Virus record (IMG/VR): IMGVR_UViG_2563366858_000008
Direction: 5' to 3' (one strand)
Origin: a virus
Lineage: Duplodnaviria; Heunggongvirae; Uroviricota; Caudoviricetes
DNA: 39,834 nt
Of this stretch, positions 7,621-27,600 are shown in pieces. The notes beneath the pieces are model-generated. The model was not told the origin of the DNA. It ran no database searches and saw only the letters and a program-made list of their open reading frames with translations. A program made the position numbers and the translations under genes. Position 1 is the stretch's first letter. Every line of letters starts with the position of its first letter.

Positions 7621-7639
7621 ATTGCATGGAGAAGATAAG

Positions 7640-7897: not shown

Positions 7898-7904
7898 ATT
7901 TAAA

Positions 7905-7920
7905 GGCCGCGAAAGCGGCC
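7905..7920 (-). terminator. Intrinsic terminator after the lipoprotein gene
   Basis: GGCCGC-gaaa-GCGGCC hairpin; on the minus strand followed by TTTAAATTT. Confidence 0.6.
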
Positions 7921-7921
7921 T

Positions 7922-7933
7922 GTGACATGTCAC
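7922..7933. repeat. 12-bp perfect palindrome GTGACATGTCAC, copy 1
   Basis: Between lipoprotein stop (7937) and terminator hairpin. Confidence 0.8.
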
Positions 7934-7936
7934 GAC

Positions 7937-8359: not shown

Positions 8360-10834
8360 TTATTGCGGAGTGACATCCTGAGGTCGCCACCAGTATGTCT
8401 GGTTAAACTCTTTCTTCGAACGTTGCTCCATTTTACGCAAATAGCCTGGTGAAAAATACTCCTGCATCTGGTTAAAGATCATGTGATCGAGAGCCGCCTT
8501 TAAGTACCAGAGATTCGCACCTGGCATCAGACCTTTCCCCAGCTTAACCAGATCACCACCAGTCTGCTCATTCTTCCCTTCCACAGCATTTAACGGTATG
8601 CCCTGAGCAATCTTCACTACGTCATCAACCAGACCAGCTACCGGGCCAAGCATCGACGCCAGCGCGCCGCTTCCGTACCTAGTGTGATCTGACAATAAAA
8701 AGTCACCGTAAAGGCCAAGACCACCACCTTTCAGTAGAGCACCAAGCCAAAATTTAGCAGCATCTTCTCCTGTCATCTCGCGATGATTACGACCAGACGC
8801 AAGGTCGTTAAGTTGCTGAGACAAAGCGCCAAGAATGGTCGTGCTGGCAATAAACGTCGCAATATATGCCGCACGCCCACCAGCAGACGGCATACCCATA
8901 GCGCGTGACCAGTGACGCATAACCACCGAGATAGGGAACGATTTAAACAGGAAAACACTTCTCGTTAATTCACCTTTCCATGTTCCACGCTGAATACCAG
9001 AACCGGTTATCAGTTGCTCACGTGCTCCCGGTGTAATAACAGCCATATCAACTTCTTCAGTTACGGCACCGAGCAGTTTACGCATTGCCTCAAATTTCAC
9101 GCGTTCAGGCTCACCAAGATGTTTAACTGCTGAATCAGGGATACGCATAATGCTTTCCGGTGTCAGCATCGTATTATTACCGTTCCCCCAGTCCTCCTGT
9201 TGCGCCAGCTTCCATACGCTCCAGTCTGTGTCAGTAATCCCTTTGCTTTTCAGGATACGAAAATCAGAGTCATCGAGGCTACGAAGGTCTGGTGTCCGTG
9301 ACACTACTTCTCCCAGGCTTCCCATCATGGTTACGCCATAGGCGCGCTTGTGCGCATCTGACCATGCTGTAAGCCCACTGGCACGCATTACCGCCGTTGC
9401 CGCCCAACGAGACACTGACGGCCCCATATTATCCATCGCCCAGCGGTTAACGCTGCCAAGTAGAGATTCCATCGCCAGACCAGCGCGGCGCGCCCGCGCA
9501 AGTTCTGTACGGTTCGTTGGGTCCATAGCTTCAAGCTGGTTGCGAAATAACTGGTTCATTGGAAGGTTGGTCACCTTCGCAGACAGATACATGGTTCCAA
9601 GATCAGAGAACGATGACAGCAACGCGGATCCGAGTCTGCTGGCAACCAGCCAGTTGCGGATAGTGTCAGACCATCGCGCGATGTGCGGATTCGCTACAGG
9701 CTGTGTCTTTCCGGAAATAAAGTTGTACAGATTCTCTGTGTTGTTCGCCAGCCGCTCGACTTTACCGGTTTTACTCGGGTTAGCTGTTGCCGTTTCTGCC
9801 TTAACCTGATCAAGAAGGGAGCGGAAAACATGATCGGGGTTTGGACCATATGTTTCCACCAGAGCAATATCTTTACTGATACCTTCCAGGTGACCGACCA
9901 TGATTTCCCATAGAGAGCGATCACCATAAAGTTGTTGATATTGGAGATAGGAATCTGCATCTTTGAAATGTATCTGTCGTGATGCATTACCACGGTTAGC
10001 ACGTGCGCCGGAAATTCGCATTCCGGTATCAGTAAGCTTATTCAGCCCACCAGTAGCGATCGTGTTATAAGCCTCTCCAAGAAATGCAGACAACTCGGCA
10101 TCGTTCATCAGTTGTCCATCGGCTCGGGTATAATATTTGCGATCCAGCTTACCTATAACATCGCCAACCCACTTATCCTTTGATACCGCCCCAACCTTTT
10201 CCATAGAATGATGTTGAGGGATCCCCCAGTTTTCGAGATAGCCAATGTCCCCACCAGCATCATTAAACCGGCGGCGCAGCAGCTCTGTAACTTCTCTCCA
10301 CGCCTTAGCACCTTTTCTTGCTTTAGCATTGCCAGTATTTTGCCCCCGCATTTCATATACCAGGTCACGTACGCCCGCTTCATCTTCAAACAGACCAAAA
10401 AAGCGAGGATCAACTGCTTCGAATGCCTCCTGCAATTGACTCAATGCATAATCACGGGTGGCTTTTGTTCTGGATTCAACAGAGAGGAAATTAGATTTAC
10501 CGTCTGCATTAAAAGCTATAGTACGGTTAAGAGCGCCAAGTTTACCATCAGCCCCTTGATAGCTATTGATAAATTTATCCAATCTCTGACGCGCGGCTAT
10601 AGTGAGAGCCACACGACGTTTCTTTAATGCCGCTTCTCGCTGTAATTCTTCAGATGCCAATTGTGCTGCTCGATATAGCCGCTCTGATTCGGAAAGTTGT
10701 CGCCACGACATCGGGTCATCACGAGCAATGGAGCGCATATTTCGATAAATGCGGTCTTCAATGTTCTGTATTTCTCGCGCCGTTAACGTGCGCTGCGCCG
10801 CCTGCTGGACCGCTTGTATACATTCCTGTCTCAT
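8360..10834 (-). CDS. Large internal virion / DNA-ejection protein
   Basis: 824 aa; last of a block of large co-directional genes between head and tailspike, as in T7/epsilon15-type podoviruses. Confidence 0.5.
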   Translation of the reverse strand: MRQECIQAVQQAAQRTLTAREIQNIEDRIYRNMRSIARDDPMSWRQLSESERLYRAAQLASEELQREAALKKRRVALTIAARQRLDKFINSYQGADGKLGALNRTIAFNADGKSNFLSVESRTKATRDYALSQLQEAFEAVDPRFFGLFEDEAGVRDLVYEMRGQNTGNAKARKGAKAWREVTELLRRRFNDAGGDIGYLENWGIPQHHSMEKVGAVSKDKWVGDVIGKLDRKYYTRADGQLMNDAELSAFLGEAYNTIATGGLNKLTDTGMRISGARANRGNASRQIHFKDADSYLQYQQLYGDRSLWEIMVGHLEGISKDIALVETYGPNPDHVFRSLLDQVKAETATANPSKTGKVERLANNTENLYNFISGKTQPVANPHIARWSDTIRNWLVASRLGSALLSSFSDLGTMYLSAKVTNLPMNQLFRNQLEAMDPTNRTELARARRAGLAMESLLGSVNRWAMDNMGPSVSRWAATAVMRASGLTAWSDAHKRAYGVTMMGSLGEVVSRTPDLRSLDDSDFRILKSKGITDTDWSVWKLAQQEDWGNGNNTMLTPESIMRIPDSAVKHLGEPERVKFEAMRKLLGAVTEEVDMAVITPGAREQLITGSGIQRGTWKGELTRSVFLFKSFPISVVMRHWSRAMGMPSAGGRAAYIATFIASTTILGALSQQLNDLASGRNHREMTGEDAAKFWLGALLKGGGLGLYGDFLLSDHTRYGSGALASMLGPVAGLVDDVVKIAQGIPLNAVEGKNEQTGGDLVKLGKGLMPGANLWYLKAALDHMIFNQMQEYFSPGYLRKMEQRSKKEFNQTYWWRPQDVTPQ

Positions 10835-10839
10835 TTAAT

Positions 10840-12642
10840 TTAACCTCTCAAGAAACACGCCACAGCAACATCAAACAGGCTGGAATCCTGTATTGCCTGC
10901 TCACTTTCCCTGTTCGCTTCATCCAGTACTTCACGCGCACTGCGCGATTGTGGATTACCATCATCATCCAGTACGGTGATTATCATGTCCGGAGATTCAA
11001 GCAGCGAGTCTTCAGCTATACGCAGATCAATATCTCCTGCCGGATCTGCCATCATTTTTTGTTCTGCCTGTTGCAATATTTTATCAGGCTCAAAAGGAGC
11101 TACTTCGTCTGGCGTCCTGACCTCTGCTGTTTTATAGAATGAAACAGCCTGAGCATTAAGTTCACTTTCTGCCTGCTGTCTCCGAGCCAGTTCTGCTCGA
11201 GCTTCAAAAAACTGACCGCCAGGCTCGTGCGGTGTCAACGCGTTACGGGAAAATTCCAGGCGTTCTTGTGCCTGCCGGATTCGTTGATCAATATCGCGAA
11301 GTCTGGCCTGTTTATCTGATCGAGCACGAGACAAAGCTTTACCGCTACCGGTTAGCTCTTCTGCAAGAATTTGTGCACGCTGTTCAGTGAGATTTTCAAT
11401 AATTCGTTGGCTATTAGCGATTTCAGACTGGTAAACCTGTCTATCTCCACGCGGCAAAAGCTGCGCGGCCTGTTCTTCAAGCAACCGATTTTCTATAGCG
11501 CGCGCCGTTACTCCATCATCTACAGATGACAGAGCCTCATTAACTGCCTGAGACAGCAGACTCTTGCGCCCTGGAATTTCACTGAAAGATGCAGACTCAA
11601 CAATGCTCGCAACGTCTACAGGTCTCCCCTGGCTAACATCAGACATAGCTTTTCGCAGAGCCTGAATGTGAGAATTGCGCGAAAGCACGTTGATCGGCAC
11701 GCCGGGCGCAATATCAATTTCAGCATGATGAGCGGCATTCGCCGCCAGTGCAGCATCGATATCAACTGGTGAAAAATTTGGTGCGCTTGTAGACTCGCCG
11801 CGAGAGTTAATAAATCTGCCGACACCACCAAACGCCACCCCAAGAACAGCATCAATAGCAATTGCCTGTCGATCCAACACATCATACTGGTTAGCCATTT
11901 CGCTATAGCCACCATCACGAAGCGTTTTTGCAGTAAGCCCACGCTGTGCCATACCGAACGCAATATTTGTACCTGCGGCATAGGCAATATCTGGCGTTGC
12001 ACGTACTGCTGTTGCTGCGGCGCGTCGCACTGAACTTTCACCCGTCCGCGCAAGCTGAGCCGCCACACCTTCCGCCAGCGCACCACCAGCACGTAACCCG
12101 AGGCTCATAGGGATCAGTGTTCCGGCACCAGCAGTAATACCCTGCACTAATCCCGCTTCCTGCGCCGTCCTGAAATCAACCCCCTGTGCTGTCAGCCGTT
12201 CAAACTCAGAAAAACCCTGTAGAGAAGTTACCGCCGCAGCACCTCCGACCGGACCACCGAGCGTTGTACCGACAACAGCCTGCCCGCCCATATCGAACAA
12301 CCCATGAAGGACCTGCCCGGCGGTTCCGGTTGTCGCGGCATCAGGCGTCAGCCGCTTAACCTGCTGCTCTGCTAGTTTTCTCTGCTCAGCAATGTATGAA
12401 ACTGAAGTGTCATTGAGCGAGGTGTTTTCGTTAACAAACTGAGCAATCGGGGATACGATTTTATCCATCCCTGCCCATAGCAACTGGTCTGGCTTTGCCA
12501 CCAGCCCGGAGTACAAACCAGACAATGCCGCTCCTACAGCATTGTCGAAAAAACCAACATCGCTGTTAAAGCCAGCTGGATTTGATGTTGCTTCGTCAAG
12601 CTGCTGATTCTGGTTTACTGGATTAAGGCCAAAGTAACTCAT
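10840..12642 (-). CDS. Internal virion / ejection protein, Gly/Ala-rich
   Basis: 600 aa; start overlaps upstream stop (ATGA); no tape-measure context. Confidence 0.45.
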   Translation of the reverse strand: MSYFGLNPVNQNQQLDEATSNPAGFNSDVGFFDNAVGAALSGLYSGLVAKPDQLLWAGMDKIVSPIAQFVNENTSLNDTSVSYIAEQRKLAEQQVKRLTPDAATTGTAGQVLHGLFDMGGQAVVGTTLGGPVGGAAAVTSLQGFSEFERLTAQGVDFRTAQEAGLVQGITAGAGTLIPMSLGLRAGGALAEGVAAQLARTGESSVRRAAATAVRATPDIAYAAGTNIAFGMAQRGLTAKTLRDGGYSEMANQYDVLDRQAIAIDAVLGVAFGGVGRFINSRGESTSAPNFSPVDIDAALAANAAHHAEIDIAPGVPINVLSRNSHIQALRKAMSDVSQGRPVDVASIVESASFSEIPGRKSLLSQAVNEALSSVDDGVTARAIENRLLEEQAAQLLPRGDRQVYQSEIANSQRIIENLTEQRAQILAEELTGSGKALSRARSDKQARLRDIDQRIRQAQERLEFSRNALTPHEPGGQFFEARAELARRQQAESELNAQAVSFYKTAEVRTPDEVAPFEPDKILQQAEQKMMADPAGDIDLRIAEDSLLESPDMIITVLDDDGNPQSRSAREVLDEANRESEQAIQDSSLFDVAVACFLRG

Positions 12643-15152
12643 TGCGGAATATCTCCGGAGAATCTCTGACGCTTCTGTGTCAGATTAAGAACAACGGGAG
12701 AACCATCATCTTTCAGCAGATAACCAGTACCAAGTTTCACCAGGTACTGACTATCGCCGTAACTTTGCAAACCATACTGACCAGGCGGTGTTTTTATCCC
12801 GGAGCCGACAACTTGTTCATTCCAAGCCTGATTAACCTGCTTATCGAATTGCTCTGCAGACATTCCCCACGGCAAAAGGACATTCCCCATTCCGTTATAG
12901 TCATGCACGCCACCTGTAGCTACGTTAACAGCCTGTTTCCAGACATCATTGTCAATTTCGCCTGATACCACGCCTTTTTTCGCCATCACACCAGCGTAAT
13001 AATCCTTTGCGATCTCGTATGCCATTGATGCCCCCTGAGCGTCACCAGCAAATGCATCCTTCACCATGTCAGAAAACTCAAGGCGAAGATCAGCATCTTT
13101 AGGCATCGGAATACCTTTCGCATCATCAGTACCTTTACGAGCCGCCGCGCCAGCAAGAATTGTCTGCGCAGCGGTTTCAGGAGACACGGAAACATCCGGA
13201 TTAAACCAGTTTTTTTCTGCCAAAATACCACCAGGCTTATCCATCAGTATCCCGGCAACGGCAGCAGATGGAGCGTTGGCACTGATCTGCTGTAGTGCTG
13301 ACATATACACCTGCCCACCACCAGTGCTCTGCCTGATGGTATCGAGATATGCTGCCTGTTGGGAAACTGGAGCATCACGAAAGAAAACACCTATCTGATT
13401 GGCCTCGTCTTTGGAAAAGAACGTCAGTGGAGTGCCATATGACTTAGCAAGGTCACTGACCTGAGCGGCACGCAAGGCAACGCTCTGTCCAAAGTTATCC
13501 TTATTGCTCATGTCGATAGGCTTTGCCTGTCCGGAGGCAAGAGAGAACTGCACAGGATCCGACTGCCGCTGCTTTATCACCTGATTTGCAGCCGAAACAA
13601 CGTTGTCATAAAGAGCTGCGCGTGCCGCATAGCCCTCCCCTGTATCACCAGTATCCGGGCGTAATTGCTCAACATATGCTGTAATGCTGCTTGTCGGCAT
13701 GTTGCGGAAAGAGCCTATATACTGTCCGGCGATCTGCGTATTTCTGAACTCGGTATATCGCAGGTTTCCTTCTCTGACGCCATAAGCTGCAATAAAATCA
13801 GCCTCACCAGGTGGATTAGGAAATTCAACGCCACGCATATACGCAGCCGTCGCATCGCGAACCTGGCTGTCAATCATCGTTTTATATTCAGCCTGCTGCT
13901 GCCGACGCAGTTGATCCGCCTGTCGCATAAAACTTGCCTGCGCCTCAGGAGATGCCGCATCGAATGCTGCATTACCGGTATAGCGTTTGGTGTTGGTTGG
14001 AATTGTTGATAAACCAAGTGCTGCACTGACACCAGCAGTTAACTGCTGATCACTGTATGGCTGGCTACCGTTCTCATGATGGATAATGGCTGCACAAAGC
14101 GCCTTCAGGGTATCAGGATTAGATGCATCGAGAGGCTCATCAGCAGAAACGCCAAGTTGTTCGCACACTGCTTTGATATACGACATAGTGTCATTTTTAT
14201 CAGTAGGCGGTGCCCAGCGATTAATTATCTCGCTGACGGTATCAATACCCTGCCTCTGATACGACATCAGGTTCCGCCCTAATGCACGAATCCCGTGTTC
14301 AGGTGTTTCGAATTTAGCAAATCGACCATCATCACCGGTCTGGCCTACCCACGGATTGGTTTTGCTGTATTCGAGATTTCCTGGGTTATTGTTGCGTATG
14401 CCACGGGCACGCTCGGAAGAATCACTATCTGCTACAGCACGGCGAGCTCCAGCAGCAGTATCACTTAACTCGCCATTACTTTGGATGAATGCGGTCGCAT
14501 TGTTTGCCGACCACTGGGACAATGCTGCATCAGCAACCTTCTCTTTAAACTCGATTTTCTTGGCCTGGATTTGCTCGTCGCTCCAGCCATGCGCAATGCC
14601 GTAATCCTCAATTTGCTGGAAAGTTTGCTTATTAGCCAATACGTATGCGGCGTTGTCGCCATACAATGCTGAGGCATTTTTACCATTGTTCAGCAGCGTC
14701 GCCTGAAACTGGCCTTCTTCGTAGGCATTTATTTGCCCTATCTCGTGCCGCCCGGCCTGCGTAGTGAACTGAATGCGCTGCTGCTGCGCCTGCTGCATGA
14801 AAGCATTACGAGCCTGTTCATCCGGCAGCGACATAGCCAGTTGCTCGACCTGGGCATCAAACTGCTGCGTATACTCCTGACCTTTTCCAATAGCATTTTT
14901 CCCTTTCAGGTTAAGCAAACCTGTTTCAGGGTTATTCAACAGATCGCTGCTTATCTGGCTTAAGCTAAGAGAAGCATCCTGAGCCATAGCAACATTCGCA
15001 CGCTGTTTTGCCTGCGCAATAATACCTGCATATTGCTCTGCAACATCGCCAAGTACATCACCGACATTTGGAGTCTGAAACGATGAGAATCCCTGAGTCG
15101 AAATCCCTCTGCTCTGAACCTGACGGCCCGATGTTGTTGGTACAACTGGCAT
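12639..15152 (-). CDS. Large internal virion (core) protein
   Basis: 837 aa; contains segment RGIRNNNPGNLEY of unknown function. Confidence 0.5.
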   Translation of the reverse strand: MPVVPTTSGRQVQSRGISTQGFSSFQTPNVGDVLGDVAEQYAGIIAQAKQRANVAMAQDASLSLSQISSDLLNNPETGLLNLKGKNAIGKGQEYTQQFDAQVEQLAMSLPDEQARNAFMQQAQQQRIQFTTQAGRHEIGQINAYEEGQFQATLLNNGKNASALYGDNAAYVLANKQTFQQIEDYGIAHGWSDEQIQAKKIEFKEKVADAALSQWSANNATAFIQSNGELSDTAAGARRAVADSDSSERARGIRNNNPGNLEYSKTNPWVGQTGDDGRFAKFETPEHGIRALGRNLMSYQRQGIDTVSEIINRWAPPTDKNDTMSYIKAVCEQLGVSADEPLDASNPDTLKALCAAIIHHENGSQPYSDQQLTAGVSAALGLSTIPTNTKRYTGNAAFDAASPEAQASFMRQADQLRRQQQAEYKTMIDSQVRDATAAYMRGVEFPNPPGEADFIAAYGVREGNLRYTEFRNTQIAGQYIGSFRNMPTSSITAYVEQLRPDTGDTGEGYAARAALYDNVVSAANQVIKQRQSDPVQFSLASGQAKPIDMSNKDNFGQSVALRAAQVSDLAKSYGTPLTFFSKDEANQIGVFFRDAPVSQQAAYLDTIRQSTGGGQVYMSALQQISANAPSAAVAGILMDKPGGILAEKNWFNPDVSVSPETAAQTILAGAAARKGTDDAKGIPMPKDADLRLEFSDMVKDAFAGDAQGASMAYEIAKDYYAGVMAKKGVVSGEIDNDVWKQAVNVATGGVHDYNGMGNVLLPWGMSAEQFDKQVNQAWNEQVVGSGIKTPPGQYGLQSYGDSQYLVKLGTGYLLKDDGSPVVLNLTQKRQRFSGDIPQ

Positions 15153-15164
15153 CTTATTATCCCC

Positions 15165-15704
15165 TTATCGACCGGTTGGAGTGCCAACAGCAGCAGAAAT
15201 CGGCGCAGCCTTCTGAGAGAACGGGCTCCACGTTCCGCCGCCCAACTTATATGCACCGTATGCTTTTAGTGGTGCCGTTAACAAAGTGCTGGTCATCGAT
15301 GATTTAGCAGCCGACTGAGCAGCAGCACCCTGTGCCTGAGCATTCATTCCCTGAACCTGATACCCATATGCCTCACGCTGAGCATTATTCACTGTCGTTA
15401 ACGCATCAAGAGTGCCGAACTGAGCATTATCCGCAAAAACGTCAAGAGCTGTTCCGCTACTTAATTCCGCACCGGTAGCCCCCATAGTGGCCGCCGCAGT
15501 GCCTGAGCGTTGACGCATTTCACGACGACGCTGATCCGCTTCAATATTCCCACGATTGATTGAATCCTGTGCCTGAGCTTCAGCAATTTCAGCATTCCGA
15601 TCAGCTATGGCTGACTGGTATTTTGCCTGCTTGCTCTGGCTGTACATTGACGCGGCTGTGGATGCCACTGTGACGGCAACCAAAGCGATGGCTGGGTTAC
15701 ACAT
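15165..15704 (-). CDS. Internal virion protein, Ala/Gln-rich
   Basis: 179 aa; N-terminal hydrophobic segment; start overlaps upstream stop by 1 nt. Confidence 0.45.
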   Translation of the reverse strand: MCNPAIALVAVTVASTAASMYSQSKQAKYQSAIADRNAEIAEAQAQDSINRGNIEADQRRREMRQRSGTAAATMGATGAELSSGTALDVFADNAQFGTLDALTTVNNAQREAYGYQVQGMNAQAQGAAAQSAAKSSMTSTLLTAPLKAYGAYKLGGGTWSPFSQKAAPISAAVGTPTGR

Positions 15705-16168
15705 TATTTTCTCTCCATGTGAAATCTGTGGAAATTAAGACCAAGAGCACCATAAGGCGCGGCTTCTTCAAGCCTGAATCCAAGCCAGTGGAGCCATGCT
15801 TTGGCAACATGGTTTCGCTCGTCGACGTAGTTTTCCAGACGCGGATAAACTGCCAGCATCTGCTGCAATACAGGGCGGCAGTGGCGAAGAAATGTCTTCT
15901 GATATTTTTCAATACGGCTGGTTCCTACCAGCCATGGCGTACCATTGCCACCGATCATTGACGCCGGAGATACACCAAACATGGTTACCAGTTCTCCGTT
16001 CGCGAACCCTGACCAGGCTATAGTCGCAGTGCGCAGACCAACACGCAGCGCATCTTCGGTAGTCATCAGTGATACCGCATACAGTTCGTCAATATCAGCC
16101 TGACGAACATCCGGCAAAATCATCTGAAGATGCTCTTCGGTAGCGGGAATAATTTGGACATCGATCAT
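15704..16168 (-). CDS. Virion structural protein
   Basis: 154 aa; 1-nt overlap junctions with neighbours. Confidence 0.45.
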   Translation of the reverse strand: MIDVQIIPATEEHLQMILPDVRQADIDELYAVSLMTTEDALRVGLRTATIAWSGFANGELVTMFGVSPASMIGGNGTPWLVGTSRIEKYQKTFLRHCRPVLQQMLAVYPRLENYVDERNHVAKAWLHWLGFRLEEAAPYGALGLNFHRFHMERK

Positions 16169-18639
16169 CAGAATCCCCCAACAGTAAGGCGAGGAATAAC
16201 GGCAAGAACAGACAGCGGCAACGGGTCAAGCTGACGGATTTTTACACGTCCGTTTTTGCCCCAGTTACTGTCCAGTTTCACTTCTACTTTTCCGGTAGCG
16301 TCATCAACAGGATCATCGTAGAACTCGAATTCACGCTGTGGATATTCGTACCATTTACCGCCGGGCGTAGTCGCCCAGATGCCGCGACTGGCATTCACAA
16401 CCAGAGTAACGGAGGGGATCACCTGTTTTTTGTCCAGCAGCGTTTCCTGTCCGTTAATGTTGATATCCAGTGTTTCGAATTCAGCAGTTATTGGCAGGCC
16501 GATGTGCACTACAGCCCCCGGAGATTCCAGTGTGACGGCACCTCCGGAAACAACTTTCTGTGGCTCAACATTCGCATCAGAAAGAATGTTTACGGTCTGT
16601 CCTTCAAGATGAGACAGGCCTCCAAATGTCCGGCGCGCCATCTGCCAGTTCGTGGTGGCCGCATTCCTGAGGGATGGCGGGACGTTCCTGTTAGCACGAA
16701 CCACTACAGCGGTATTGCTGGTTACAGAAATAATGTCGCAACGTAATTCTTTTGACACTTCATCGCCAGTATCAGGATCAGTTCCGGTATAAGGGAGCTG
16801 TAGTTGCGCGCCGACATCACTACTGGTGAAGTACGCACCACCAGAAACACTGATTGTATATTCCGTGCGGTAATCCCATTCACCAGAACCACCAGTGATG
16901 GTCATCGTTCTGTCAGACGTATTTCTTCCATCATAGCTAAGGCCAGAATCAACAAAGAAAGCATCTTCATCGCTGGTAAATAAACGGCTGGACAGTCTCT
17001 CGATGTATCTCACTGTTTGCCCGTTAACGGTTCGGTTAACGACGAAATACACCGCATCTTCATTGCCTTCGCTGATACTGCACGTGCTTTCATATTTTCC
17101 GGTACTGGACTGTGGTGCCCATGCAAAAACCTGTTGATCACGCAAATAGGTCATCACCAGTAATTTACCGTCATCACGAATGCAGAAGGCGCTGGAGTAA
17201 GGGACAATCGAGAAGCACCAGTCAACAATGCTGTGCTTCTGAAAAAGATGATTGGCAAGGATGGTCAGGTCGTTCCCCTGATAGCCATCAACATCGAATG
17301 AGTAGGCCAGATCACGGACAACACTGCCTTTCTCCTGGACGAACAGAGCAATATTCGCCACGGCAATTGGTGGGACGTTGCTTGAGCCATTTGATCCCTG
17401 AGAACTGAATGCAAATGATGATGGGGTTAATACTTTGTTCTGGTCGCCGGTGATGACGTACTCACCTCCGGAAGTCAGCGCCACCAGCGAACCAACATCA
17501 ATCAGGTGGCGGATCTCATTAACCTGACGTCCGGCATAGGTGTAGATAATTCTGTCGTCATCCTGCGTAGGATTGCTTTTGCCAAAATCCTTATAATCCC
17601 CGGTACGGCTGGCCCAGATAGTCTGAGGGAACGCAGTCGATGCGGCGAAGTAAAGACGTTGTTGATAATAAACAACAGTGCCAGGATAACCGTTAATACT
17701 GTTCCAGGCATATTTAGCCCATTTATAGCTGGCATTATCCTCGCCAACTACCTGCGAAGGGATATAGGAAATCACCTCGGCAGTTGCAGTAGTTCCATTT
17801 GCAGCAGAGATACGGGCAATGCCAAAACCACTGTGCAGATACTCCCACTCAATGCCGGTATCATCATCACCGGATCCGCCCCAGCCATCCCATGATGTGC
17901 CTTCTGTATGCGAAGGGCGCAAAGTGCCTGTTTTGCCTGCTGTAACGGCGCGATAGTAGTTACTGTCTGCACGGCGAATATCGCCAATCGACGTACTCTT
18001 ACTGGTTTCCCATACCGGCACAGAATCCACTGCAGGTTGTTCCAGATAGAACAATTTGCCTACCTGCTCCGCGCCAAAAATAGAGGCGCTTGCCGTTAAC
18101 GTAATTGTCCCGGTGCTGGCGCTGGCATAAACCGTCACTGACTCGTCAATATTGATATCTTCAAATGGCCCGTTCTTCGTTACCACATCAACCAGTTGCC
18201 AGTTGTCATGCGCATAGCGGCGCAACTCTTTCGGCGGGTATGCCGGATGAACCAGCGTAAGCACGTCGGCGCTTTGCGTGAATTTAATTCGGAACAGATC
18301 GGCTTCAGTATATGGTGTGGCAATTTCATAAATAACATTGCTGCTGTTCAGCACCAACGCACCATCTTTGATAACGCGCATGTACTGGTGTCCGAACTCC
18401 AGAGCATAGGTCTGAACCGTCGAGAACTGGAACGGGATCAGGCGGCATTTCCGATTTGGGTATTTGGCGGCACCGACAAAACGCGTACCAGGTCGATTCT
18501 CAACGCCGCCATACTGCCGCACAATAAAGTTATCGCACTTGCGCAATGCCACCTGGTACTTCGCCATGTCGATACGACCGTACAACGACGGTCCAATCTC
18601 ACCACCGGCAAAGCTGGGCTGGATCCAACTGATAGCCAT
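16168..18639 (-). CDS. Tail hub / tail tubular protein B-like (nozzle)
   Basis: 823 aa; immediately downstream of a gp11-like adaptor gene; call from position and size. Confidence 0.4.
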   Translation of the reverse strand: MAISWIQPSFAGGEIGPSLYGRIDMAKYQVALRKCDNFIVRQYGGVENRPGTRFVGAAKYPNRKCRLIPFQFSTVQTYALEFGHQYMRVIKDGALVLNSSNVIYEIATPYTEADLFRIKFTQSADVLTLVHPAYPPKELRRYAHDNWQLVDVVTKNGPFEDINIDESVTVYASASTGTITLTASASIFGAEQVGKLFYLEQPAVDSVPVWETSKSTSIGDIRRADSNYYRAVTAGKTGTLRPSHTEGTSWDGWGGSGDDDTGIEWEYLHSGFGIARISAANGTTATAEVISYIPSQVVGEDNASYKWAKYAWNSINGYPGTVVYYQQRLYFAASTAFPQTIWASRTGDYKDFGKSNPTQDDDRIIYTYAGRQVNEIRHLIDVGSLVALTSGGEYVITGDQNKVLTPSSFAFSSQGSNGSSNVPPIAVANIALFVQEKGSVVRDLAYSFDVDGYQGNDLTILANHLFQKHSIVDWCFSIVPYSSAFCIRDDGKLLVMTYLRDQQVFAWAPQSSTGKYESTCSISEGNEDAVYFVVNRTVNGQTVRYIERLSSRLFTSDEDAFFVDSGLSYDGRNTSDRTMTITGGSGEWDYRTEYTISVSGGAYFTSSDVGAQLQLPYTGTDPDTGDEVSKELRCDIISVTSNTAVVVRANRNVPPSLRNAATTNWQMARRTFGGLSHLEGQTVNILSDANVEPQKVVSGGAVTLESPGAVVHIGLPITAEFETLDININGQETLLDKKQVIPSVTLVVNASRGIWATTPGGKWYEYPQREFEFYDDPVDDATGKVEVKLDSNWGKNGRVKIRQLDPLPLSVLAVIPRLTVGGF

Positions 18640-19247
18640 CAGGACAACCTCGCAATGGTAAACTCATCAACCGGTGGCTGTGGTTCCTGTGATTCATTCT
18701 GGCTATGCGAGCCAGCACTAAGAATCACGCGATTGTACATATTGAGGGCAAACGTACCGAGGTCTGCATTCCCAGTCAGCGCCATGTTAATAGCTGCCGC
18801 AAGACGCCAGGCCAACGCCTCCATAAAAATGGCATCAAACATGTTCACATCTGTAACGCGAGAGACATACTTGAGCCATGCCTGAGGCTGGTCTGTGTAG
18901 ATCAACTTTCCTGTTCCGTTGGTGTCTGCACCAACTTCGTACTGAACGCGCATTGCTGCTGTTGGATTGCGTACACCAGGAAGCATAATTTCAGTAATGC
19001 GCAGACAATCTGACGGGTACTGGTACGCATATTCCCAGTCAGGCGGTGGATTGCTCGTATCTGCAAGCGCCACGCGTTTGGTAGCAAAGTTCCAGTCAAA
19101 ATCAGAAAGCACAGCATCACGGCAGGCCTCAAAGTGCAGCGAACATTCCCCCGCTTCCTTGCTGGCTTCCGTCAGGCTGTTAATGCTGCGGCTATTGCCA
19201 ATATTGGACAGCGCACGATTACAGATCTCTACTACAGAGGCCATCAC
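18639..19247 (-). CDS. Tail adaptor / tail tubular protein A-like (T7 gp11-like)
   Basis: 202 aa; N-terminal ALSNIGNSRSINSL resembles T7 gp11 N-terminus (weak, recalled); ATGA overlap with upstream gene. Confidence 0.4.
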   Translation of the reverse strand: MMASVVEICNRALSNIGNSRSINSLTEASKEAGECSLHFEACRDAVLSDFDWNFATKRVALADTSNPPPDWEYAYQYPSDCLRITEIMLPGVRNPTAAMRVQYEVGADTNGTGKLIYTDQPQAWLKYVSRVTDVNMFDAIFMEALAWRLAAAINMALTGNADLGTFALNMYNRVILSAGSHSQNESQEPQPPVDEFTIARLS

Positions 19248-19567
19248 TCACCTCCGTTACCGTACAGAGTTTCAGCCGCTGATTTTTCTACATCCCCGGA
19301 AACAGGAGCGATCGCCATATCAGTGATCTGCAGATCGGCGCTGCGATTAACACCATCGTCAGTTTCTCTGGCAGACAGGCCTCGAATAACAGCCTTTGCA
19401 GTTATCATCACTTCTGTTCCGACGCCCTGAGGTTGCGCCTTCAGCTTATTCAATGTGTCGTTATTAAGAGTGATGCACAGCCCCCACGGGTATTCATCGC
19501 GAGTTCTGGTTTCTCCGCTCTCATCCTGGTAGCTGTCAGTGCCGGTTTTGAGGTTTACGAGTTCCAT
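19244..19567 (-). CDS. Head-proximal structural protein
   Basis: AGGAG RBS 5 nt before ATG 19567; 107 aa. Confidence 0.5.
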   Translation of the reverse strand: MELVNLKTGTDSYQDESGETRTRDEYPWGLCITLNNDTLNKLKAQPQGVGTEVMITAKAVIRGLSARETDDGVNRSADLQITDMAIAPVSGDVEKSAAETLYGNGGE

Positions 19568-19585
19568 ATACACTCCTGCAATAAA

Positions 19586-19599
19586 GGGGCCGAAGCCCC
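19586..19599 (-). terminator. Intra-operon stem-loop (attenuator or mRNA stabiliser)
   Basis: GGGGC-cgaa-GCCCC; on the minus strand followed by TTTATTG, then the RBS of the next gene. Confidence 0.4.
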
Positions 19600-19617
19600 T
19601 TGTCTGATTCGCGAGGC

Positions 19618-19962
19618 TTACACGCCCAGTTCTTTACGCTTATCTGCGATCTTCTCGCGGAGCGTTTCGGCTTTGGCGTTATGGTGTGGCTTCTCGTTAA
19701 AGAGCAATTCGTACTCTTCACGGAGCTTATCCAGTTCACCATCATCTGACACATCGTTGATGATTTTGGTGCTGGTTGCTGCCATAGTCACCTTTCCTGC
19801 TACCTTTGCTTTTGCCTGTCTGGCTGCATCGTTAACAGGTTCCAGTGCGCTACCAGGCTCACCTTCGTATTCGATTTCTGCCCCCTCCGGCCACAGTGTG
19901 TTATGGATATGAGAGAGACGCAGAACGCGGTATCTTGGTTTCTCACCTGACATCGATATCAC
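19618..19962 (-). CDS. Head protein (possible decoration/staple)
   Basis: 114 aa, charged C-terminus; compact spacing after capsid genes. Confidence 0.45.
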   Translation of the reverse strand: MISMSGEKPRYRVLRLSHIHNTLWPEGAEIEYEGEPGSALEPVNDAARQAKAKVAGKVTMAATSTKIINDVSDDGELDKLREEYELLFNEKPHHNAKAETLREKIADKRKELGV

Positions 19963-19963
19963 C

Positions 19964-20401
19964 TTAACCAGTTACTTTTGAGCGGATCGGATACGGCGTA
20001 TTGGCATCAACATCAAGACTGATACCAGCAGTGAATTCGCCAGCCGTTAGCGGGCCAGTTGCGACGGAGTAGTTAACACGCAGATATCGCTGAACACCGG
20101 CAGGCACCTTTGCAGAAACAACTCGTTTACCTGCTGTCAGGGCGGTCTTTGCCAGTGCACCACTATCATAAATAGTGGTCCATGAGCTGTTATCATTACT
20201 CGTCTGCAACTGGATGTTTACAGTTGCATCACCGCTTGCTGCGGCAGCTGTGTTAACCAGCGCCCAAAACTCAAGCGGGTAACCCACGCCGATATCACGA
20301 CGTTTTCCGTCAATTGGACCGAGATCGATTACGTCAGTAGAAGCCGCGGTATTCGTAACCGCCTGAGCTTCGGAGAACATCAACAGTTTGTCGGTGATCA
20401 T
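19964..20401 (-). CDS. Head-associated structural protein
   Basis: 145 aa; GGAGAAAG RBS; immediately downstream of major capsid gene. Confidence 0.5.
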   Translation of the reverse strand: MITDKLLMFSEAQAVTNTAASTDVIDLGPIDGKRRDIGVGYPLEFWALVNTAAAASGDATVNIQLQTSNDNSSWTTIYDSGALAKTALTAGKRVVSAKVPAGVQRYLRVNYSVATGPLTAGEFTAGISLDVDANTPYPIRSKVTG

Positions 20402-20416
20402 CTTCTTTCTCCATTA

Positions 20417-20436
20417 GTGGGTCTGTTACGACCCAC
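20417..20436 (-). other. Stem-loop after the major capsid gene
   Basis: GTGGGTC-tgttac-GACCCAC, no U-tract; between capsid stop and next RBS. Confidence 0.35.
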
Positions 20437-20452
20437 AGGTTAATAACAGGCG

Positions 20453-21445
20453 TTACACCACGCGGGCTTCTGTTTCCAGAAGCGCATCAGTTTCACGGAT
20501 TGGTACACCACGGAATGACGTCCACCACTCGCCTTCTGTCTCTTTTACGCTGATCGCCAGAGATGTTTTCTCCAGAGATTGCAGATCAAGAGCCTGGCCT
20601 ACAGTGCGGTTCATGTAGAACACCGGGCGACCCATGCCACGATTTGGAATGCGATGCAGTGCTTTAACCATCAACTTCGCAATATTTGCGGCAGAGGAAG
20701 GTTCTGAAAGATTGCTGACATCGATGTTTGCAATGCGAACAACATAACGCCAGTCACGCAGAGCAAGTCCGTTGTCCCATTTGTAATGGGTACGGTAGCC
20801 TTCGTACTTGCCGCCATTCGCATCTTCCAGTGTCACCTGGCCTTTATCTTCCATCTGGATGCCAGCCTTCTGCCCTTTCGGGAAGATGCCATGCACGGTG
20901 TTTTCGCCCCACACCACTAACCAGATTGAGGTGTTATCTGTACCCGTGCCACCAGCATCAATGATGTTCTGAGCATTACCCGCAGACAGGCTGGAATAGC
21001 GGGAGGACAGTCCCATAAACTGCTGAGGGTTAACGCTGGAATCACCATAAAACAGTGTCTGCGCCATCTGCTGATTCATCGCTTCAATAAATGCGCGGTC
21101 TTCAGACAGGCGGAATTCGGCGGTATTACCGTTCAGATCAGCCAGTGACTTATCGACTTCAGCATAGGTTTCCAGCATGCCAACGGAATCGGTTACCTGC
21201 ACTGTGGTTGATTTGCTTGGCTGTACGCCATAGTTCAGCAAACGCCAGGTAGCTGAAGGTAAACCAGAACGAATGGTGGTTCGGTGTCCGGTAGGAAGGT
21301 TCCCTTCGACAAAAGGCATATCCTGAAGGATCGGGTTAGTTTGACCGAGAAGCTCGATAATCTTATCGACTTTCCCGTTTGGATCGACGCGCTTACCCCA
21401 GTCAGCCAGCGTTAGCGCAGTTAAGCCTTTAACAGCCATTGTCAT
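20453..21445 (-). CDS. Major capsid protein
   Basis: 330 aa; follows scaffold and portal in canonical head-gene order. Confidence 0.8.
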   Translation of the reverse strand: MTMAVKGLTALTLADWGKRVDPNGKVDKIIELLGQTNPILQDMPFVEGNLPTGHRTTIRSGLPSATWRLLNYGVQPSKSTTVQVTDSVGMLETYAEVDKSLADLNGNTAEFRLSEDRAFIEAMNQQMAQTLFYGDSSVNPQQFMGLSSRYSSLSAGNAQNIIDAGGTGTDNTSIWLVVWGENTVHGIFPKGQKAGIQMEDKGQVTLEDANGGKYEGYRTHYKWDNGLALRDWRYVVRIANIDVSNLSEPSSAANIAKLMVKALHRIPNRGMGRPVFYMNRTVGQALDLQSLEKTSLAISVKETEGEWWTSFRGVPIRETDALLETEARVV

Positions 21446-21453
21446 TTCCTCTC

Positions 21454-22149
21454 TTATTTGCCATAGAGCACTTCGGCCGCACTACGCTGGCCTTCATTAC
21501 CACCGGTGACCATGCCATCTTCAGACATCGCCTTTCCGATTTTCACGAACGTTTTGACCAGATCAGGGTGATTACCCAGCCCGGTGGTGTTCAGATATTC
21601 TTTGAGTTCAGGTGTCCCGAACTGGTCAAGCGCACGCTGTGCGGCGCTAAGGTTAGAAATCAACTTGTCGCCACCGATTTCTTTGTCAGCTTTTACATCA
21701 GCAGCCCACTGCTCGGTTGTTTTCTGCCAGGCTTCTGCCTGGCGCTGCTGCACACCTGCCAGAATCTTCGGATAAGCATCAACCAGCTTTTGCGCTTGCT
21801 CGTTGGTCAGGTTAAGTTCTCGCGCCACCGGCTCGAATTCCTTCAACGCTTCTGTATCCAGCTCTACGCCTTCGGCAGCCTGAAACTCGTACTTCTCAGG
21901 CGCACCCTCTGGTTTATCGCCGTCCTTTTTTTCATCCTGCTTATCGTTTTCAGGCTTTTTGTCATCAGCAGGTTTATCGCCATCAGCAACAGGTTGTGGC
22001 TTATCACCTTCCGATTGTGATGGATCACCAACTGGAGCAGGGTTATCACCTGCAGGCGCTGACGGTTCTGACGCAGCCGGAGCTGCTCCACCATCGACTG
22101 GTTGCTCATTGCAAAGACGGCGATACAGCAAACGCTCAAATAAATTCAT
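21454..22149 (-). CDS. Scaffolding protein
   Basis: Acidic, Pro/Ala-rich low-complexity N-terminal half and helical C-terminus; AGGAG RBS before ATG 22149 (track start 22155 is an in-frame GTG). Confidence 0.7.
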   Translation of the reverse strand: MNLFERLLYRRLCNEQPVDGGAAPAASEPSAPAGDNPAPVGDPSQSEGDKPQPVADGDKPADDKKPENDKQDEKKDGDKPEGAPEKYEFQAAEGVELDTEALKEFEPVARELNLTNEQAQKLVDAYPKILAGVQQRQAEAWQKTTEQWAADVKADKEIGGDKLISNLSAAQRALDQFGTPELKEYLNTTGLGNHPDLVKTFVKIGKAMSEDGMVTGGNEGQRSAAEVLYGK

Positions 22150-22151
22150 GA

Positions 22152-22448
22152 TCACTCCTGTTCACTGGCCTCTTTGGCCATCTTCAAATACTGTTCAGGG
22201 CAATGCGCCATAACGCGCTGAAACAGTTCCAGCGCCAGATTGCGTTGCCCCTCATTAAATGCCATAGCCATAGCGTCCATCGGTGAGATAGCAGAAAACA
22301 CACGGCCTTTCTCCAGCACCGACCAGACAACGCGACGCCCCTGTTCACTGCTCATGACAAAGCGAATGTCATCAATTTCACGCTGTGCCATGTCACGTTG
22401 CTTACGGGCGTTTTCTTCTTTCAGTTGATCGTCTTCGTAATCTGTCAT
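22152..22448 (-). CDS. Small head-assembly protein
   Basis: 98 aa; ATGA overlap with portal stop. Confidence 0.5.
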   Translation of the reverse strand: MTDYEDDQLKEENARKQRDMAQREIDDIRFVMSSEQGRRVVWSVLEKGRVFSAISPMDAMAMAFNEGQRNLALELFQRVMAHCPEQYLKMAKEASEQE

Positions 22449-24124
22449 TGTGATTGCCCACCCTGACCACTAACTGCATTCGCCATAGCTGACAAAACAC
22501 TCGGATCCGAAGTTTTAGCTTCGCTTAGCGTCTTGGCACCCTGTGCCGCCGCCATCCCCATCGCCATCATTTGTTGCTGCTGTTGCTGCTGTGCCCGTTG
22601 CTGGCGAGCCTGCTCAACCTGTTCCTGCGGAACAATGACGGTTGGAGACACTCCAGACATATCAGCGAATGCATCGATTGCCTGATCAACGTTGAGTTTG
22701 TCGAGAGCTTCTGGTTTCGCTTGCGCAAGTTGACCAATGAAGTTGACCGTAGACGCCAGACTGGACAGGCCGATAGACTTCTGCGCCTGAGCCATGACGG
22801 AAATGTATTCGACCTTCAGGGGCATACCTTCCATCGCGTCAGGCGGGGGCGGCAGCATGTTTTTACGCACCATCATCGAGAAAGCGCGGTCAATGAGAGG
22901 ATTAAGACATTCGTCGTTCAGACGCTCCAGAACCGGCCCCAACATCAGAAGTTTTTCTTCTTTCATTTCGATCACCGCTTCAACAGGCATCGAACGGGTA
23001 TTGATGTTCTGCAACATCATGAACAGATCGACAAAGTAGGCACTGTTAATGATTTGACGAGTGTCCTGAATGTCTGCCACCAGATCTGCTGTACTGGGGT
23101 TAACCAGATAAGCAGGCCTGAAACCATCCTGACCAGTAATCTGATCGATATACGTGATGTCGCCAGGAAGAAGGGAGGCGCGCTGATTCTTGAGGGAAGT
23201 CGGAGCAATCATCGGCGGATTGGTGGCTTTATCAATCAACTGCGACTTGCGCTTCTGGAGAAGCTGCAATGCCTTAACAGGTCCAAGCGCCAGCATACCC
23301 GGGCATGATGATCCATAAACATCTTCGCCGTTAACTTCCCAGCGCGGAGCCATAATTGGAAACTCATCGAATCCTGACTCACGCAACAACTTGTCGTTAT
23401 CACCGCCAACCTCGTAATAAACCGATTTGAATGGCTTGTTCTTGCTATCCAGCTTCGATGTATCGCGGTCAATGTTCGGGTAAACCGAATGCATCACTTC
23501 AATCCACTTCTCGTAGGTGCCGCTTTCCCACATGCTTTTTACGGATTCGCTGACGTTATTTAGCCCGAACTCCTGAACAAGCTGACGAACAGTCATAGAG
23601 AACTTGCGAAAACAGGTGTCCACACTGCCACGAGGTGAGTTAGCCAGGTAGTAACTGCCTATAGGGAATGGCATTGTGCGAATGATGTCCTCGTCATCCT
23701 CCAGCACCGCCATTGCACCAGTGCTGTATGTGCCGAGGCTTCCGTATAACTGCGGCAGCGACTGATAGAGATTCGACTTATTGAACATATCGTTCATGCG
23801 GTTCTGCACCGCCTCAAGCCACAACTTAACAGGGCCATAATCCATCATTTCAGGATCTGGCGTAGCCAGGCGAAACCACGGACGCGCGGGGCTTGTGATG
23901 CCTGACATCATGCCGCTGGCGAGAGTGCGCGCCGCCATAGTCCCGGTCGAATCAATAATGCGTGTATTCCGTCGATCGTTACGGTTGACCTCAGAAGTCA
24001 GAAAGCGGGAACCACGCGGGTTGATGTAATCACTCAACTCGCGCCAGTGCGGCTCGAACGACTGACGCTCGCTTTCAAGTTGTGCGAACTGTTTGTTCAA
24101 TCGCTCTTTAGTTGTTTCCGCCAT
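22445..24124 (-). CDS. Portal protein, podovirus head-to-tail connector type
   Basis: 559 aa; Gln-rich C-terminal tail (QQQQQQQMMAMGMAAAQ) as in T7 gp8-type connectors. Confidence 0.85.
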   Translation of the reverse strand: MAETTKERLNKQFAQLESERQSFEPHWRELSDYINPRGSRFLTSEVNRNDRRNTRIIDSTGTMAARTLASGMMSGITSPARPWFRLATPDPEMMDYGPVKLWLEAVQNRMNDMFNKSNLYQSLPQLYGSLGTYSTGAMAVLEDDEDIIRTMPFPIGSYYLANSPRGSVDTCFRKFSMTVRQLVQEFGLNNVSESVKSMWESGTYEKWIEVMHSVYPNIDRDTSKLDSKNKPFKSVYYEVGGDNDKLLRESGFDEFPIMAPRWEVNGEDVYGSSCPGMLALGPVKALQLLQKRKSQLIDKATNPPMIAPTSLKNQRASLLPGDITYIDQITGQDGFRPAYLVNPSTADLVADIQDTRQIINSAYFVDLFMMLQNINTRSMPVEAVIEMKEEKLLMLGPVLERLNDECLNPLIDRAFSMMVRKNMLPPPPDAMEGMPLKVEYISVMAQAQKSIGLSSLASTVNFIGQLAQAKPEALDKLNVDQAIDAFADMSGVSPTVIVPQEQVEQARQQRAQQQQQQQMMAMGMAAAQGAKTLSEAKTSDPSVLSAMANAVSGQGGQSQ

Positions 24125-27597: not shown

Positions 27598-27600
27598 TAG

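Follow-up and report, generated by a model that had tools for sequence, protein, structure and literature searches.

A T7-type portal, tail and ejection module in a temperate prophage of the epsilon15/phiV10 group at guaA of Escherichia coli

How does what looks like the portal and tail of T7 come to lie next to what looks like the replication, immunity and lysis genes of lambda? The question is raised by a stretch of 39,834 nucleotides from IMG/VR virus record IMGVR_UViG_2563366858_000008 (the whole of this stretch is called the window here), and above all by its block of genes at positions 8360–24124, in which an earlier interpretation made from the letters alone (the sequence-only reading) had seen a T7-like portal and core/tail module housed in a lambdoid-regulated temperate phage. 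The data gathered here make it about 95% probable that the block comprises the virion genes of a podovirus that is temperate, belongs to the epsilon15/phiV10 group (genus Uetakevirus) and sits as a prophage at the guaA 3′ end in E. coli.

The relationship to known phages is immediate. The block extends from the start codon of the 559-residue portal open reading frame (ORF) at 24124 to the end of an 824-residue ORF at 8360, with 14 of 14 ORFs on the minus strand, and 96% of it is covered at 97.9–98.5% nucleotide identity by the Escherichia phages phiv142-3, vB_EcoP_ZX5 (ZX5) and phiV10; Enterobacter phage Tyrion follows at 81.5% and Salmonella phage epsilon15 at about 75% over partial coverage. 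All five are classed in the genus Uetakevirus. At the protein level, 12 of the 14 block products are 96–99% identical to those of phiV10, and every one of the 14 ORFs is intact, with a length within 3 residues of its phiV10 counterpart. The assignment to the epsilon15/phiV10 type made by the sequence-only reading is borne out by the identity of about 98% that the block shares with phiV10, phiv142-3 and ZX5. In the remaining half of the window, 45–71% of the length aligns to these Uetakevirus phages, at about 97% identity. Measured against phiv142-3, about 28.8 kb of the ~38.7-kb prophage aligns at 96–98.5% identity, or roughly 73%. The genus guideline of the virus taxonomy body, the ICTV, is about 70% or more genome-wide nucleotide similarity to genus members, with the species level at 95%; on these alignments the element qualifies as a Uetakevirus, being above the genus level and below the species level. 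The gene order of the genus (terminase, portal, capsid, adaptor, nozzle, internal proteins, tailspike, O-antigen modification, lysis, attP, integrase) is present as well, as checked gene by gene against phiV10 and epsilon15.

Where does this element reside? The 39.8-kb window is nearly all a single prophage and not a free phage genome. Positions 1–1162 are host chromosome, 100% identical to that of E. coli AF5, and of 5426 complete E. coli genomes, 5422 have the two core genes, yfgH and yfgI, that lie in these positions. Phage homology begins exactly at 1163, with the 17-bp sequence AATCATTCCCACTCAAT; a second copy spans the guaA stop codon, and, read as its reverse complement, the sequence equals the published attP/attB core shared by phiV10, epsilon15 and ZX5 (ZX5 paper). 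Integration at the guaA 3′ end via the core attgagtgggaatgatt is thus seen on both sides, in the copy at the window junction and in that at the guaA 3′ end of AF5. The opposite end of the window is the start codon of the integrase gene, which in AF5 abuts guaA; attL lies at the guaA 3′ end, some 190 bp past the last position of the window. Prophages of this type are very common: at least 397 contigs in IMG/VR encode a relative of the nozzle protein, and the best 80 of them, at 99–100% identity, are mostly of prophage size and come from gut metagenomes and E. coli genomes. A tblastn search of the phage collection gave 221 phage homologues of the nozzle.

If the element is so plainly a prophage, might it be a dead one? 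A defective remnant, in which the structural block no longer functions, would fit its being found integrated, its lack of the Bro-N anti-repressor and the divergence of its gp14-like allele, and this is unlikely rather than absurd. What counts against it is completeness: beyond the intact structural ORFs, the terminase, lysis and integrase genes and the att core are all intact, and the divergent gp14 allele passes the Pfam cut-off and retains both terminal motifs.

Which parts of T7 does the block then resemble? Its order is portal, a 98-residue protein, scaffold, capsid, three small capsid-associated proteins, and proteins of 202, 823, 154, 179, 837, 600 and 824 residues; the tailspike gene follows the 824-residue gene after a short divergent insert. 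Order and sizes agree with T7 gp8 to gp17 (gp11, gp12, gp13, gp14, gp15 and gp16 of T7 have 196, 794, 138, 196, 747 and 1318 residues). The T7 order from head to tailspike that had been claimed for the block holds to this extent, but the large proteins number three and not four, and scaffold and capsid are not T7-like: neither gave a match to its T7-type counterpart (gp9 and gp10, respectively) in the profile comparison with hhalign described below, and Hardies et al. (2016) group the epsilon15 capsid and terminase with siphoviruses. Because scaffold and capsid are unrelated to T7 gp9 and gp10 at profile level, the T7-type part consists of the portal and of everything from the adaptor onwards, excluding the capsid shell genes.

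The portal is a member of the T7 gp8 family and matches the Carin-1 portal (PDB 8CK0_A) at E 5.6e-179. Its C-terminal tail is rich in Gln, Met and Ala, with 27% Gln in the last 60 residues vs 6.8% overall and a run QQQQQQQ; that of T7 gp8 is Q/M/A-rich too (15% Gln vs 6.3% overall), so that the likeness of the two tails noticed by the sequence-only reading stands. Side by side, the two tails read ...QQKMAQQSMQMGM..AAALAQG.. and ...QQQQQQQMMAMGMAAAQG... A Gln-rich tail is present in all 11 portals of the family that were examined, at 13–27% Gln in the tail vs 5–7% overall. The adaptor (T7 gp11, or tail tubular protein A, type) matches the Carin-1 connector (8CK1_E) at E 3.9e-26, and its AlphaFold2 model, with a mean predicted local distance difference test score (pLDDT) of 88.8, matches the same chain in Foldseek at E 2.8e-16 with a template modelling (TM) score of 0.84 and T7 gp11 itself (7BOX_N) at E 5.6e-6, probability 1.00 and TM 0.60; a long series of further T7-type adaptors is matched as well. 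For the adaptor, the similarity seen by fold corresponds to about 12–14% identity. The nozzle (T7 gp12, or tail tubular protein B, type) matches the “Tail Nozzle” of Carin-1 (8CK1_A) at E 3.8e-217 and, more distantly, the LME-1 nozzle (9EFK_M) at E 2.2e-15. The tails of LME-1 and Carin-1 closely resemble the T7 tail complex (LME-1 paper).

A more direct comparison with T7 was made through profiles built for each gene slot and aligned all against all with hhalign, the window side being represented by eight diverse syntenic relatives (Salmonella phage epsilon15 and phages of Pseudomonas, Xylella, Pelagibacter, Bordetella, Vibrio, Burkholderia and Acinetobacter) and the T7 side by T7, SP6, phiKMV and P-SSP7. 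Matches fell on the syntenic diagonal only: portal with gp8 (98.1% probability, E 1e-13, 483 columns), adaptor with gp11 (87.9%, E 3.7e-7, 192 columns), nozzle with gp12 (99.1%, E 4.1e-18, 639 columns), the 154-residue protein with gp13 (98.6%, E 9.2e-15, 145 columns) and the 179-residue protein with gp14 (39.6%, E 5.1e-5, 176 columns); off the diagonal, all cells remained below 1% probability. The comparison with T7 gp11–gp16 that the sequence-only reading had proposed as a check thus matches gp11, gp12, gp13 and gp14, touches the C-terminal part of gp16 weakly and leaves gp15 unmatched.

A single-sequence PDB search with the 154-residue protein returned nothing useful, and its epsilon15 homologue bears a GNAT HHpred note in its record. 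The 179-residue protein scores 34.1 bits against the T7 gp14 family (PF24072; cut-off 27) and shares with T7 gp14 an N-terminal MC... hydrophobic segment and a C-terminal motif KAPI.AA.GT.TGR; by this resemblance it is probably an outer-membrane pore component. It is 62% identical to phiV10p17, vs 97–99% for its neighbours and 94.5% for the adjoining 837-residue protein. The gp14-like gene (15165–15704) and the adjoining start of 12639–15152 look like a local allele replacement in an otherwise near-identical block.

Temperate podoviruses with tailspikes need not be T7-like, and P22 is the obvious other model, with a gp4 adaptor, gp10 hub, gp26 needle and the ejection proteins gp7, gp20 and gp16. 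The window phage is temperate and uses tailspikes instead of fibres, a published review clusters the epsilon15 ejection proteins with those of P22 in some trees, and Hardies et al. (2016) put P22 in the same broad homology group. A P22-type virion is nevertheless very unlikely: the adaptor model that finds gp11-type structures at E 1e-5 to 1e-6 reaches P22 gp4 in Foldseek at E 0.72 only; the portal falls in PF12236, not in the P22 portal family; the nozzle follows the gp12 profile over 639 columns; and P22 lacks the T7-like core stack described for epsilon15; no search was aimed at a gp26-type needle.

The T7 likeness is old. When the 14 products of the block were compared pairwise (phmmer, BLASTP) with T7 gp8 to gp17, together with the tailspike and a neighbouring 137-residue protein, nothing significant emerged, and the T7 claim therefore rests on profiles and folds. 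The same module order recurs in phages of Pseudomonas, Xylella, Pelagibacter, Bordetella, Vibrio, Burkholderia and Acinetobacter. Taken together, these comparisons point to deep common ancestry, not to a recent T7 × lambda chimera.

How lambdoid, then, is the other half of the genome? The labels O/P, cI/cro and Rz/Rz1 given by the sequence-only reading are partly analogies. For O/P, the helicase loader is indeed of the lambda P family (PF06992), but the initiator is O-like at its N-terminus only, the PHROG match covering ~160 residues there with no Pfam Phage_rep_O match, and carries a DnaT domain. For cro/cI, the Cro-like gene and the repressor gene are divergently arranged, as in lambda, but the repressor has no S24 (LexA-like) autocleavage domain, Pfam showing HTH domains only. 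The Rz/Rz1 pair is embedded as expected and has a lipobox, LALAGC, but its larger member is a DUF2514 protein outside the lambda Rz family. The element is lambdoid only in part. In the ZX5 paper, the ZX5 gene taken here as the equivalent of the window repressor gene was shown to be the lysogeny repressor and to work with an anti-repressor. The searches picked up neither an N nor a Q antiterminator family in the window; a 116-residue “transcriptional regulator” (phrog_536) is encoded on the late strand at 27888–28238, a short way upstream of the terminase genes, and is a candidate late-gene activator in lambda Q's stead, as judged from its family and position.

Nucleotide sharing with lambdoid phages is confined to ~28315–30870, where DUF551/EaA and Ead/Ea22-like genes are 92–98% identical to those of Shiga toxin (Stx) phages, lambda (ea22 region) and P22-type phages; no identity of this kind is seen in the genes for replication and immunity. 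This recombination hot zone extends its identity to the P1-like plasmid phages D6 and SJ46. A recent cross between a lytic T7-like phage and a lambdoid prophage, with the block as a newly acquired T7 module, would account for the T7 order and families and would find in these patches a sign of ongoing recombination. Yet it is hardly credible: similarity to T7 appears only at the level of profiles and folds, with no significant pairwise match; the module keeps its order across distant hosts, in several phages that are temperate; the recent exchange lies in EaA/Ea22 accessory genes, outside the structural block; and there is no gene for a T7-type RNA polymerase. The genome is instead mosaic twice over, combining an ancient podoviral tail/ejection lineage with a lambda-style temperate backbone and showing recent lambdoid exchange on a small scale.

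The three large proteins at the end of the block are harder to place. The first (837 residues, the epsilon15 gp15 equivalent) has a lytic transglycosylase domain inside the chain, at about residues 245–400, which matches the N-terminal domain of the 1295-residue Gp29 of E. coli phage E1004 (PDB 9VVP_L) at E 4e-38; the protein also matches the 7Q47 endolysin at E 2.7e-17. E1004 Gp29 is taken here to correspond to gp16, given its size and the transglycosylase domain at its N-terminus. The E1004 ejection proteins stack on the portal in a T7-like manner, and the position of the transglycosylase in ejection proteins varies among T7-like phages (E1004 preprint). The second (600 residues, the epsilon15 gp16 equivalent) keeps its gene position in related phages and has a single hydrophobic segment at residues 260–278; it found no match in the PDB or among the T7 profiles, and the same holds for the 837-residue protein outside its enzymatic domain. 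The third (824 residues, the epsilon15 gp17 equivalent) belongs to a family of 5086 clusters at 50% identity, in some members of which it forms the C-terminal part of giants of 1700–2913 residues. A 66-sequence profile of this family aligned by hhalign to residues 820–1153 of T7-type gp16 over 285 columns (E 3.3e-4) and to every other T7 slot at E > 0.1, a weak but specific hint that the 824-residue protein may be related to the C-terminal half of gp16; a PDB profile search with the same alignment gave chance-level matches only, and a single-sequence search likewise nothing useful. Hardies et al. (2016) mapped tubular tail proteins A and B and the internal virion proteins (IVPs) A, B and D onto epsilon15 within their “transient tail” homology group, with gp17 as IVP-D, in agreement with this hint, and failed to find a gp15 (IVP-C) homologue in the epsilon15 family; here, too, none of the three large proteins matched the T7-type gp15 profile. 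The epsilon15 literature, as quoted in other papers, describes a T7-like core stack and internal proteins that are ejected, forming a tail-like apparatus. It is because of their position, their conservation and this epsilon15 literature that the large proteins are assigned an internal, ejection role.

Several points weigh against the assignment of the block as proposed. Neither the 837- nor the 600-residue protein has an hhalign match to the T7-type gp15 or gp16 profiles, and the gp16 signal of the 824-residue protein has a probability of 38%. We infer the virion location and ejection role of all three. The AlphaFold2 model of the nozzle, built with 20 homologues that are all at least 82% identical, reached a mean pLDDT of 38.9 and was discarded. 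Finally, family searches of the window did not find the Bro-N anti-repressor of phiV10 and ZX5.

Could the epsilon15-type ejection apparatus differ from the gp14–gp15–gp16 channel of T7, with the 837- and 600-residue proteins as a structurally distinct periplasmic section? This is a tentative idea, to be thought possible rather than probable, and it is put forward because there are three large proteins and not two, because profiles find no gp15 homologue and because the transglycosylase lies mid-chain in the first large protein. In phages of the Bordetella BPP-1 type, Vibrio MZH0603 and Acinetobacter Ab9, one giant gene stands in place of two or three of those seen here; the genes for the large proteins have therefore been fused in some lineages and kept separate in others. 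A published table (PMC8954989, Table 1) lists epsilon15 gp11, gp12 and gp13 as proteins of 229, 499 and 708 residues homologous to gp14, gp15 and gp16, whereas in the epsilon15 genome these proteins have about 201, about 825 and about 154 residues; the entry is probably mislabelled and was not used.

Is the tail truly short? Every window ORF of at least 400 residues is accounted for, and, one narrow tape-measure match aside, none of the window ORFs matched a tape-measure, tail-tube, sheath, tail-terminator or baseplate family in Pfam or PHROG, in keeping with the absence of tape-measure and tail-tube genes reported by the sequence-only reading; nor did the searches identify a tape-measure homologue, the finding that it had named as contrary to a podovirus. 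The sole candidate was the 837-residue protein, which matches phrog_2276 (“tail length tape measure protein”) at E 3.6e-32. This match covers residues 185–421 only and was rejected because it is restricted to the transglycosylase domain, which occurs in some tape measures too; over its full length, the protein is best matched by families of the “head protein” and endolysin types. Electron microscopy shows a short tail for ZX5, whose block is about 98% identical (ZX5 paper), from which we infer that this element would be a podovirus too, as had been predicted together with its T7-type portal, tail and ejection module. A long-tailed phage with unrecognised tape-measure and tube genes, one of the 600- to 837-residue proteins being the tape measure, could appeal to that phrog_2276 match and deserves next to no credence in view of its narrow extent, the lack of any tube, sheath, terminator or baseplate family and the short tail of ZX5. 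Being podoviral and T7-like does not make the element a member of the Autographiviridae: it lies outside that family because it has no phage RNA polymerase (in the window, no RNA polymerase family was matched and no unaccounted ORF is large enough) and because it is temperate, with an integrase, a repressor and an att site.

Taken together, the homologies suggest the following particle. A dodecameric portal of the T7 gp8 type would occupy one capsid vertex and, by homology to the solved T7, Carin-1 and LME-1 tails, would carry a short tail built of a gp11-type adaptor with twelve subunits and a gp12-type nozzle with six, with six tailspikes held by their conserved N-terminal domains. Inside the head, the gp13-like and gp14-like proteins and those of 837, 600 and 824 residues would be stacked on the portal, as homology, synteny and the epsilon15 and T7 literature suggest. 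Upon infection, the tailspike would bind and cleave the O-antigen and the nozzle would open; the internal proteins would leave before the DNA and build a transient channel through the envelope, in which the outer membrane would be the site of the gp14-like protein and the inner membrane that of the gp16-C-like 824-residue protein, with peptidoglycan cut by the 837-residue protein through its transglycosylase domain. The temperate style comes from the repressor/Cro-like pair, the O-like initiator and P-family loader, RecE/RecT, the integrase and the holin–endolysin–Rz/Rz1 genes, along with O-antigen-modifying cargo.

Table 1. Positions of the prophage genes, flanking host genes and att core in the window, with the basis of each assignment (aa, amino acids).
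Feature	Position	Strand	Basis or remark
Host genes yfgH (1–516) and yfgI (532–1071)	1–1071	+	Pfam; non-phage
att core AATCATTCCCACTCAAT (attR), prophage–host junction	1163–1179		17-bp exact repeat with guaA 3′ end
Lysis cassette	1290–3096	−	Pfam; phiV10 annotation
i-spanin, Rz-like	1290–1772	−	DUF2514; not lambda Rz family
Rz1 lipoprotein	about 1298–1573		Embedded in Rz, +1 frame; lipobox LALAGC
GH19 endolysin	about 1769–2398	−	
Holins	2388–2696, 2683–3096	−	
Tailspike, 743 aa	5213–7444	−	PHROG tail fibre/spike families match residues 1 to ~220
Large virion protein, 824 aa, epsilon15 gp17 equivalent	8360–10834	−	phrog_684 “virion structural protein”
Large protein, 600 aa, epsilon15 gp16 equivalent, putative ejection protein	10840–12642	−	phrog_1145, unknown function
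Large virion protein, 837 aa, epsilon15 gp15 equivalent	12639–15152	−	phrog_992 “head protein”
Internal virion/ejection protein B, 179 aa, T7 gp14 family	15165–15704	−	Pfam PF24072 T7_gp14, E 3.3e-8
Internal virion protein A, 154 aa, T7 gp13-like	15704–16168	−	phrog_308 “internal virion protein”, E 5e-62
Tail nozzle, 823 aa, T7 gp12/tail tubular protein B type	16168–18639	−	
Tail adaptor, 202 aa, T7 gp11/tail tubular protein A type	18639–19247	−	
epsilon15 gp10-type capsid “staple”, about 107–109 aa	19244–19573	−	Pfam PF21628, E 1.2e-51
Small conserved protein, about 111–114 aa, phiV10p12 equivalent	19618–19962	−	phrog_590, E 6.4e-61
Bbp16-like capsid cement/decoration protein, 145 aa	19964–20401	−	Pfam PF21190, E 5e-47
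Major capsid protein, 330 aa, epsilon15 gp7 family	20453–21445	−	Pfam PF20911, E 2.1e-149
Scaffold or “protease” protein, 233 aa	21454–22155	−	phrog_458, E 3.5e-111
Bbp19-like protein, 98 aa	22152–22448	−	Pfam PF25181, E 2.8e-17
Portal, 559 aa, T7 gp8 family	22445–24124	−	Pfam PF12236, E 2.5e-187
Terminase large (25515–26990) and small (26987–27661) subunits	25515–27661	−	phrog_2; Pfam PF03592, E 6.6e-30; phiV10 annotation
Lambda P-family helicase loader	31546–32346	−	Pfam PF06992, E 1.5e-56; phrog_109 “P-like helicase loader”, E 7e-92
Initiator, O-like N-terminus and DnaT domain	32328–33167	−	Pfam HTH_36 and DnaT; phrog_391 “O-like”, E 8e-19
Cro-like regulator	33534–33764	−	PHROG (phrog_35/phrog_8 for the switch pair)
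Repressor	33919–34503	+	Pfam HTH_3 only; PHROG (phrog_35/phrog_8 for the switch pair)
Tyrosine integrase	38584–39834	−	Pfam

Among the remaining genes of the block, the Bbp19-like gene directly after the portal gene keeps that position in 8 related phages. Beyond the block, the plus strand encodes a tRNA-Arg(TCT) at 24773–24849, antisense to the late operon (ARAGORN; Rfam, 73 bits). It overlaps a minus-strand ORF, 24779–25030, which phiV10 annotates as a protein (p04), and the phiv142-3 record places the tRNA-Arg on the opposite strand. Matches to 64 Synechococcus phages proved to be to the conserved tRNA-Arg gene only.

On the other side of the block lie the tailspike and cargo genes. In the tailspike, the particle-binding domain conserved in Uetakevirus takes up the N-terminal ~220 residues; for residues 231–743, a tblastn search of 50,697 phage records found as its best match, at 51% identity, the tailspike of vB_EcoP-611R6, and by this distance the O-antigen specificity is probably unlike that of any characterised phage. 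Positions 3242–5182 encode a 646-residue protein in which an AT3 acyltransferase is fused to an SGNH domain, in a patch of low GC content (about 38% vs about 50% elsewhere). Standing in place of the 338-residue Oac of phiV10, this protein is probably, by its domains, a different O-antigen-modifying (serotype-converting) cargo. At 7517–8350, where phiV10 carries its Bro-N anti-repressor, the window has a 137-residue predicted lipoprotein and a small gp19-like ORF (7517–7897). The lipoprotein gene lies at 7937–8350 (phrog_8691), and its product, with a signal ending ...LISAC, could be a superinfection-exclusion factor. The tailspike domain, the AT3–SGNH acyltransferase, the lipoprotein and the swapped gp14 allele are ordinary cargo variation for a Uetakevirus.

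What is gained by placing the element in this way? The phage type, its podovirus morphology, the guaA site and the T7-like tail and internal proteins are already known from the literature and partly from RefSeq notes: the epsilon15 RefSeq record reads “gp11; HHpred: Tail tubular protein A {T7}”, and T7 names already appear in the annotation of related phages of Pelagibacter. The practical value lies in annotation, with confident labels for the portal, adaptor, nozzle, gp13-like, gp14-like, transglycosylase-bearing ejection and gp16-C-like proteins. The O-antigen-modifying cargo and a tailspike of untyped specificity, in a common E. coli prophage, bear on serotype conversion and phage host range, and the large proteins touch the question of how epsilon15-type ejection proteins without a recognisable gp15 homologue build a trans-envelope channel.

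How, finally, does the window phage compare with the systems that it resembles? Closest are phiV10, phiv142-3, ZX5 and TL-2011b, which have the same gene order, integrase, 17-bp guaA att core, tRNA-Arg and terminase, replication and lysis genes. Compared with the phiV10-type phages, the window differs in the receptor-binding domain of its tailspike, in the 646-residue AT3–SGNH protein vs the 338-residue Oac of phiV10, in the 137-residue lipoprotein that replaces the Bro-N region, in the 62% identical gp14-like allele and in several early accessory genes. The type member, epsilon15, a podovirus with an internal core in its cryo-electron microscopy model, has the same module order and the same attP. 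Its proteins are 80% (portal), 85% (adaptor) and 88% (nozzle) identical to those of the window, but 43% for the capsid, 35–42% for the decoration proteins, 31% for the 600-residue protein and 28% for the 824-residue protein, and its serotype-conversion genes differ; from this unevenness it follows that the structural block is itself mosaic within the genus. Lambdoid phages share with the window the divergent repressor/Cro-like layout, the O-like and P-family pair, Rz/Rz1 and RecET-type recombination, whereas the lambda virion module is unrelated to that of the window. T7 shares the gene order and similar sizes, homology of gp8 and gp11–gp14 by profiles or folds and of gp16-C weakly, and a transglycosylase in an ejection protein; it differs in that its transglycosylase is at the gp16 N-terminus and not mid-chain in the first large protein, in that it has two large proteins and not three, and in that it uses fibres where the window phage uses tailspikes, the latter being temperate and without a phage RNA polymerase. 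The closest solved structures of portal, nozzle and adaptor are those of the Cobetia marina phage Carin-1 (8CK0/8CK1) and Legionella LME-1 (9EFK), which differ from the window phage in their hosts and fibres.

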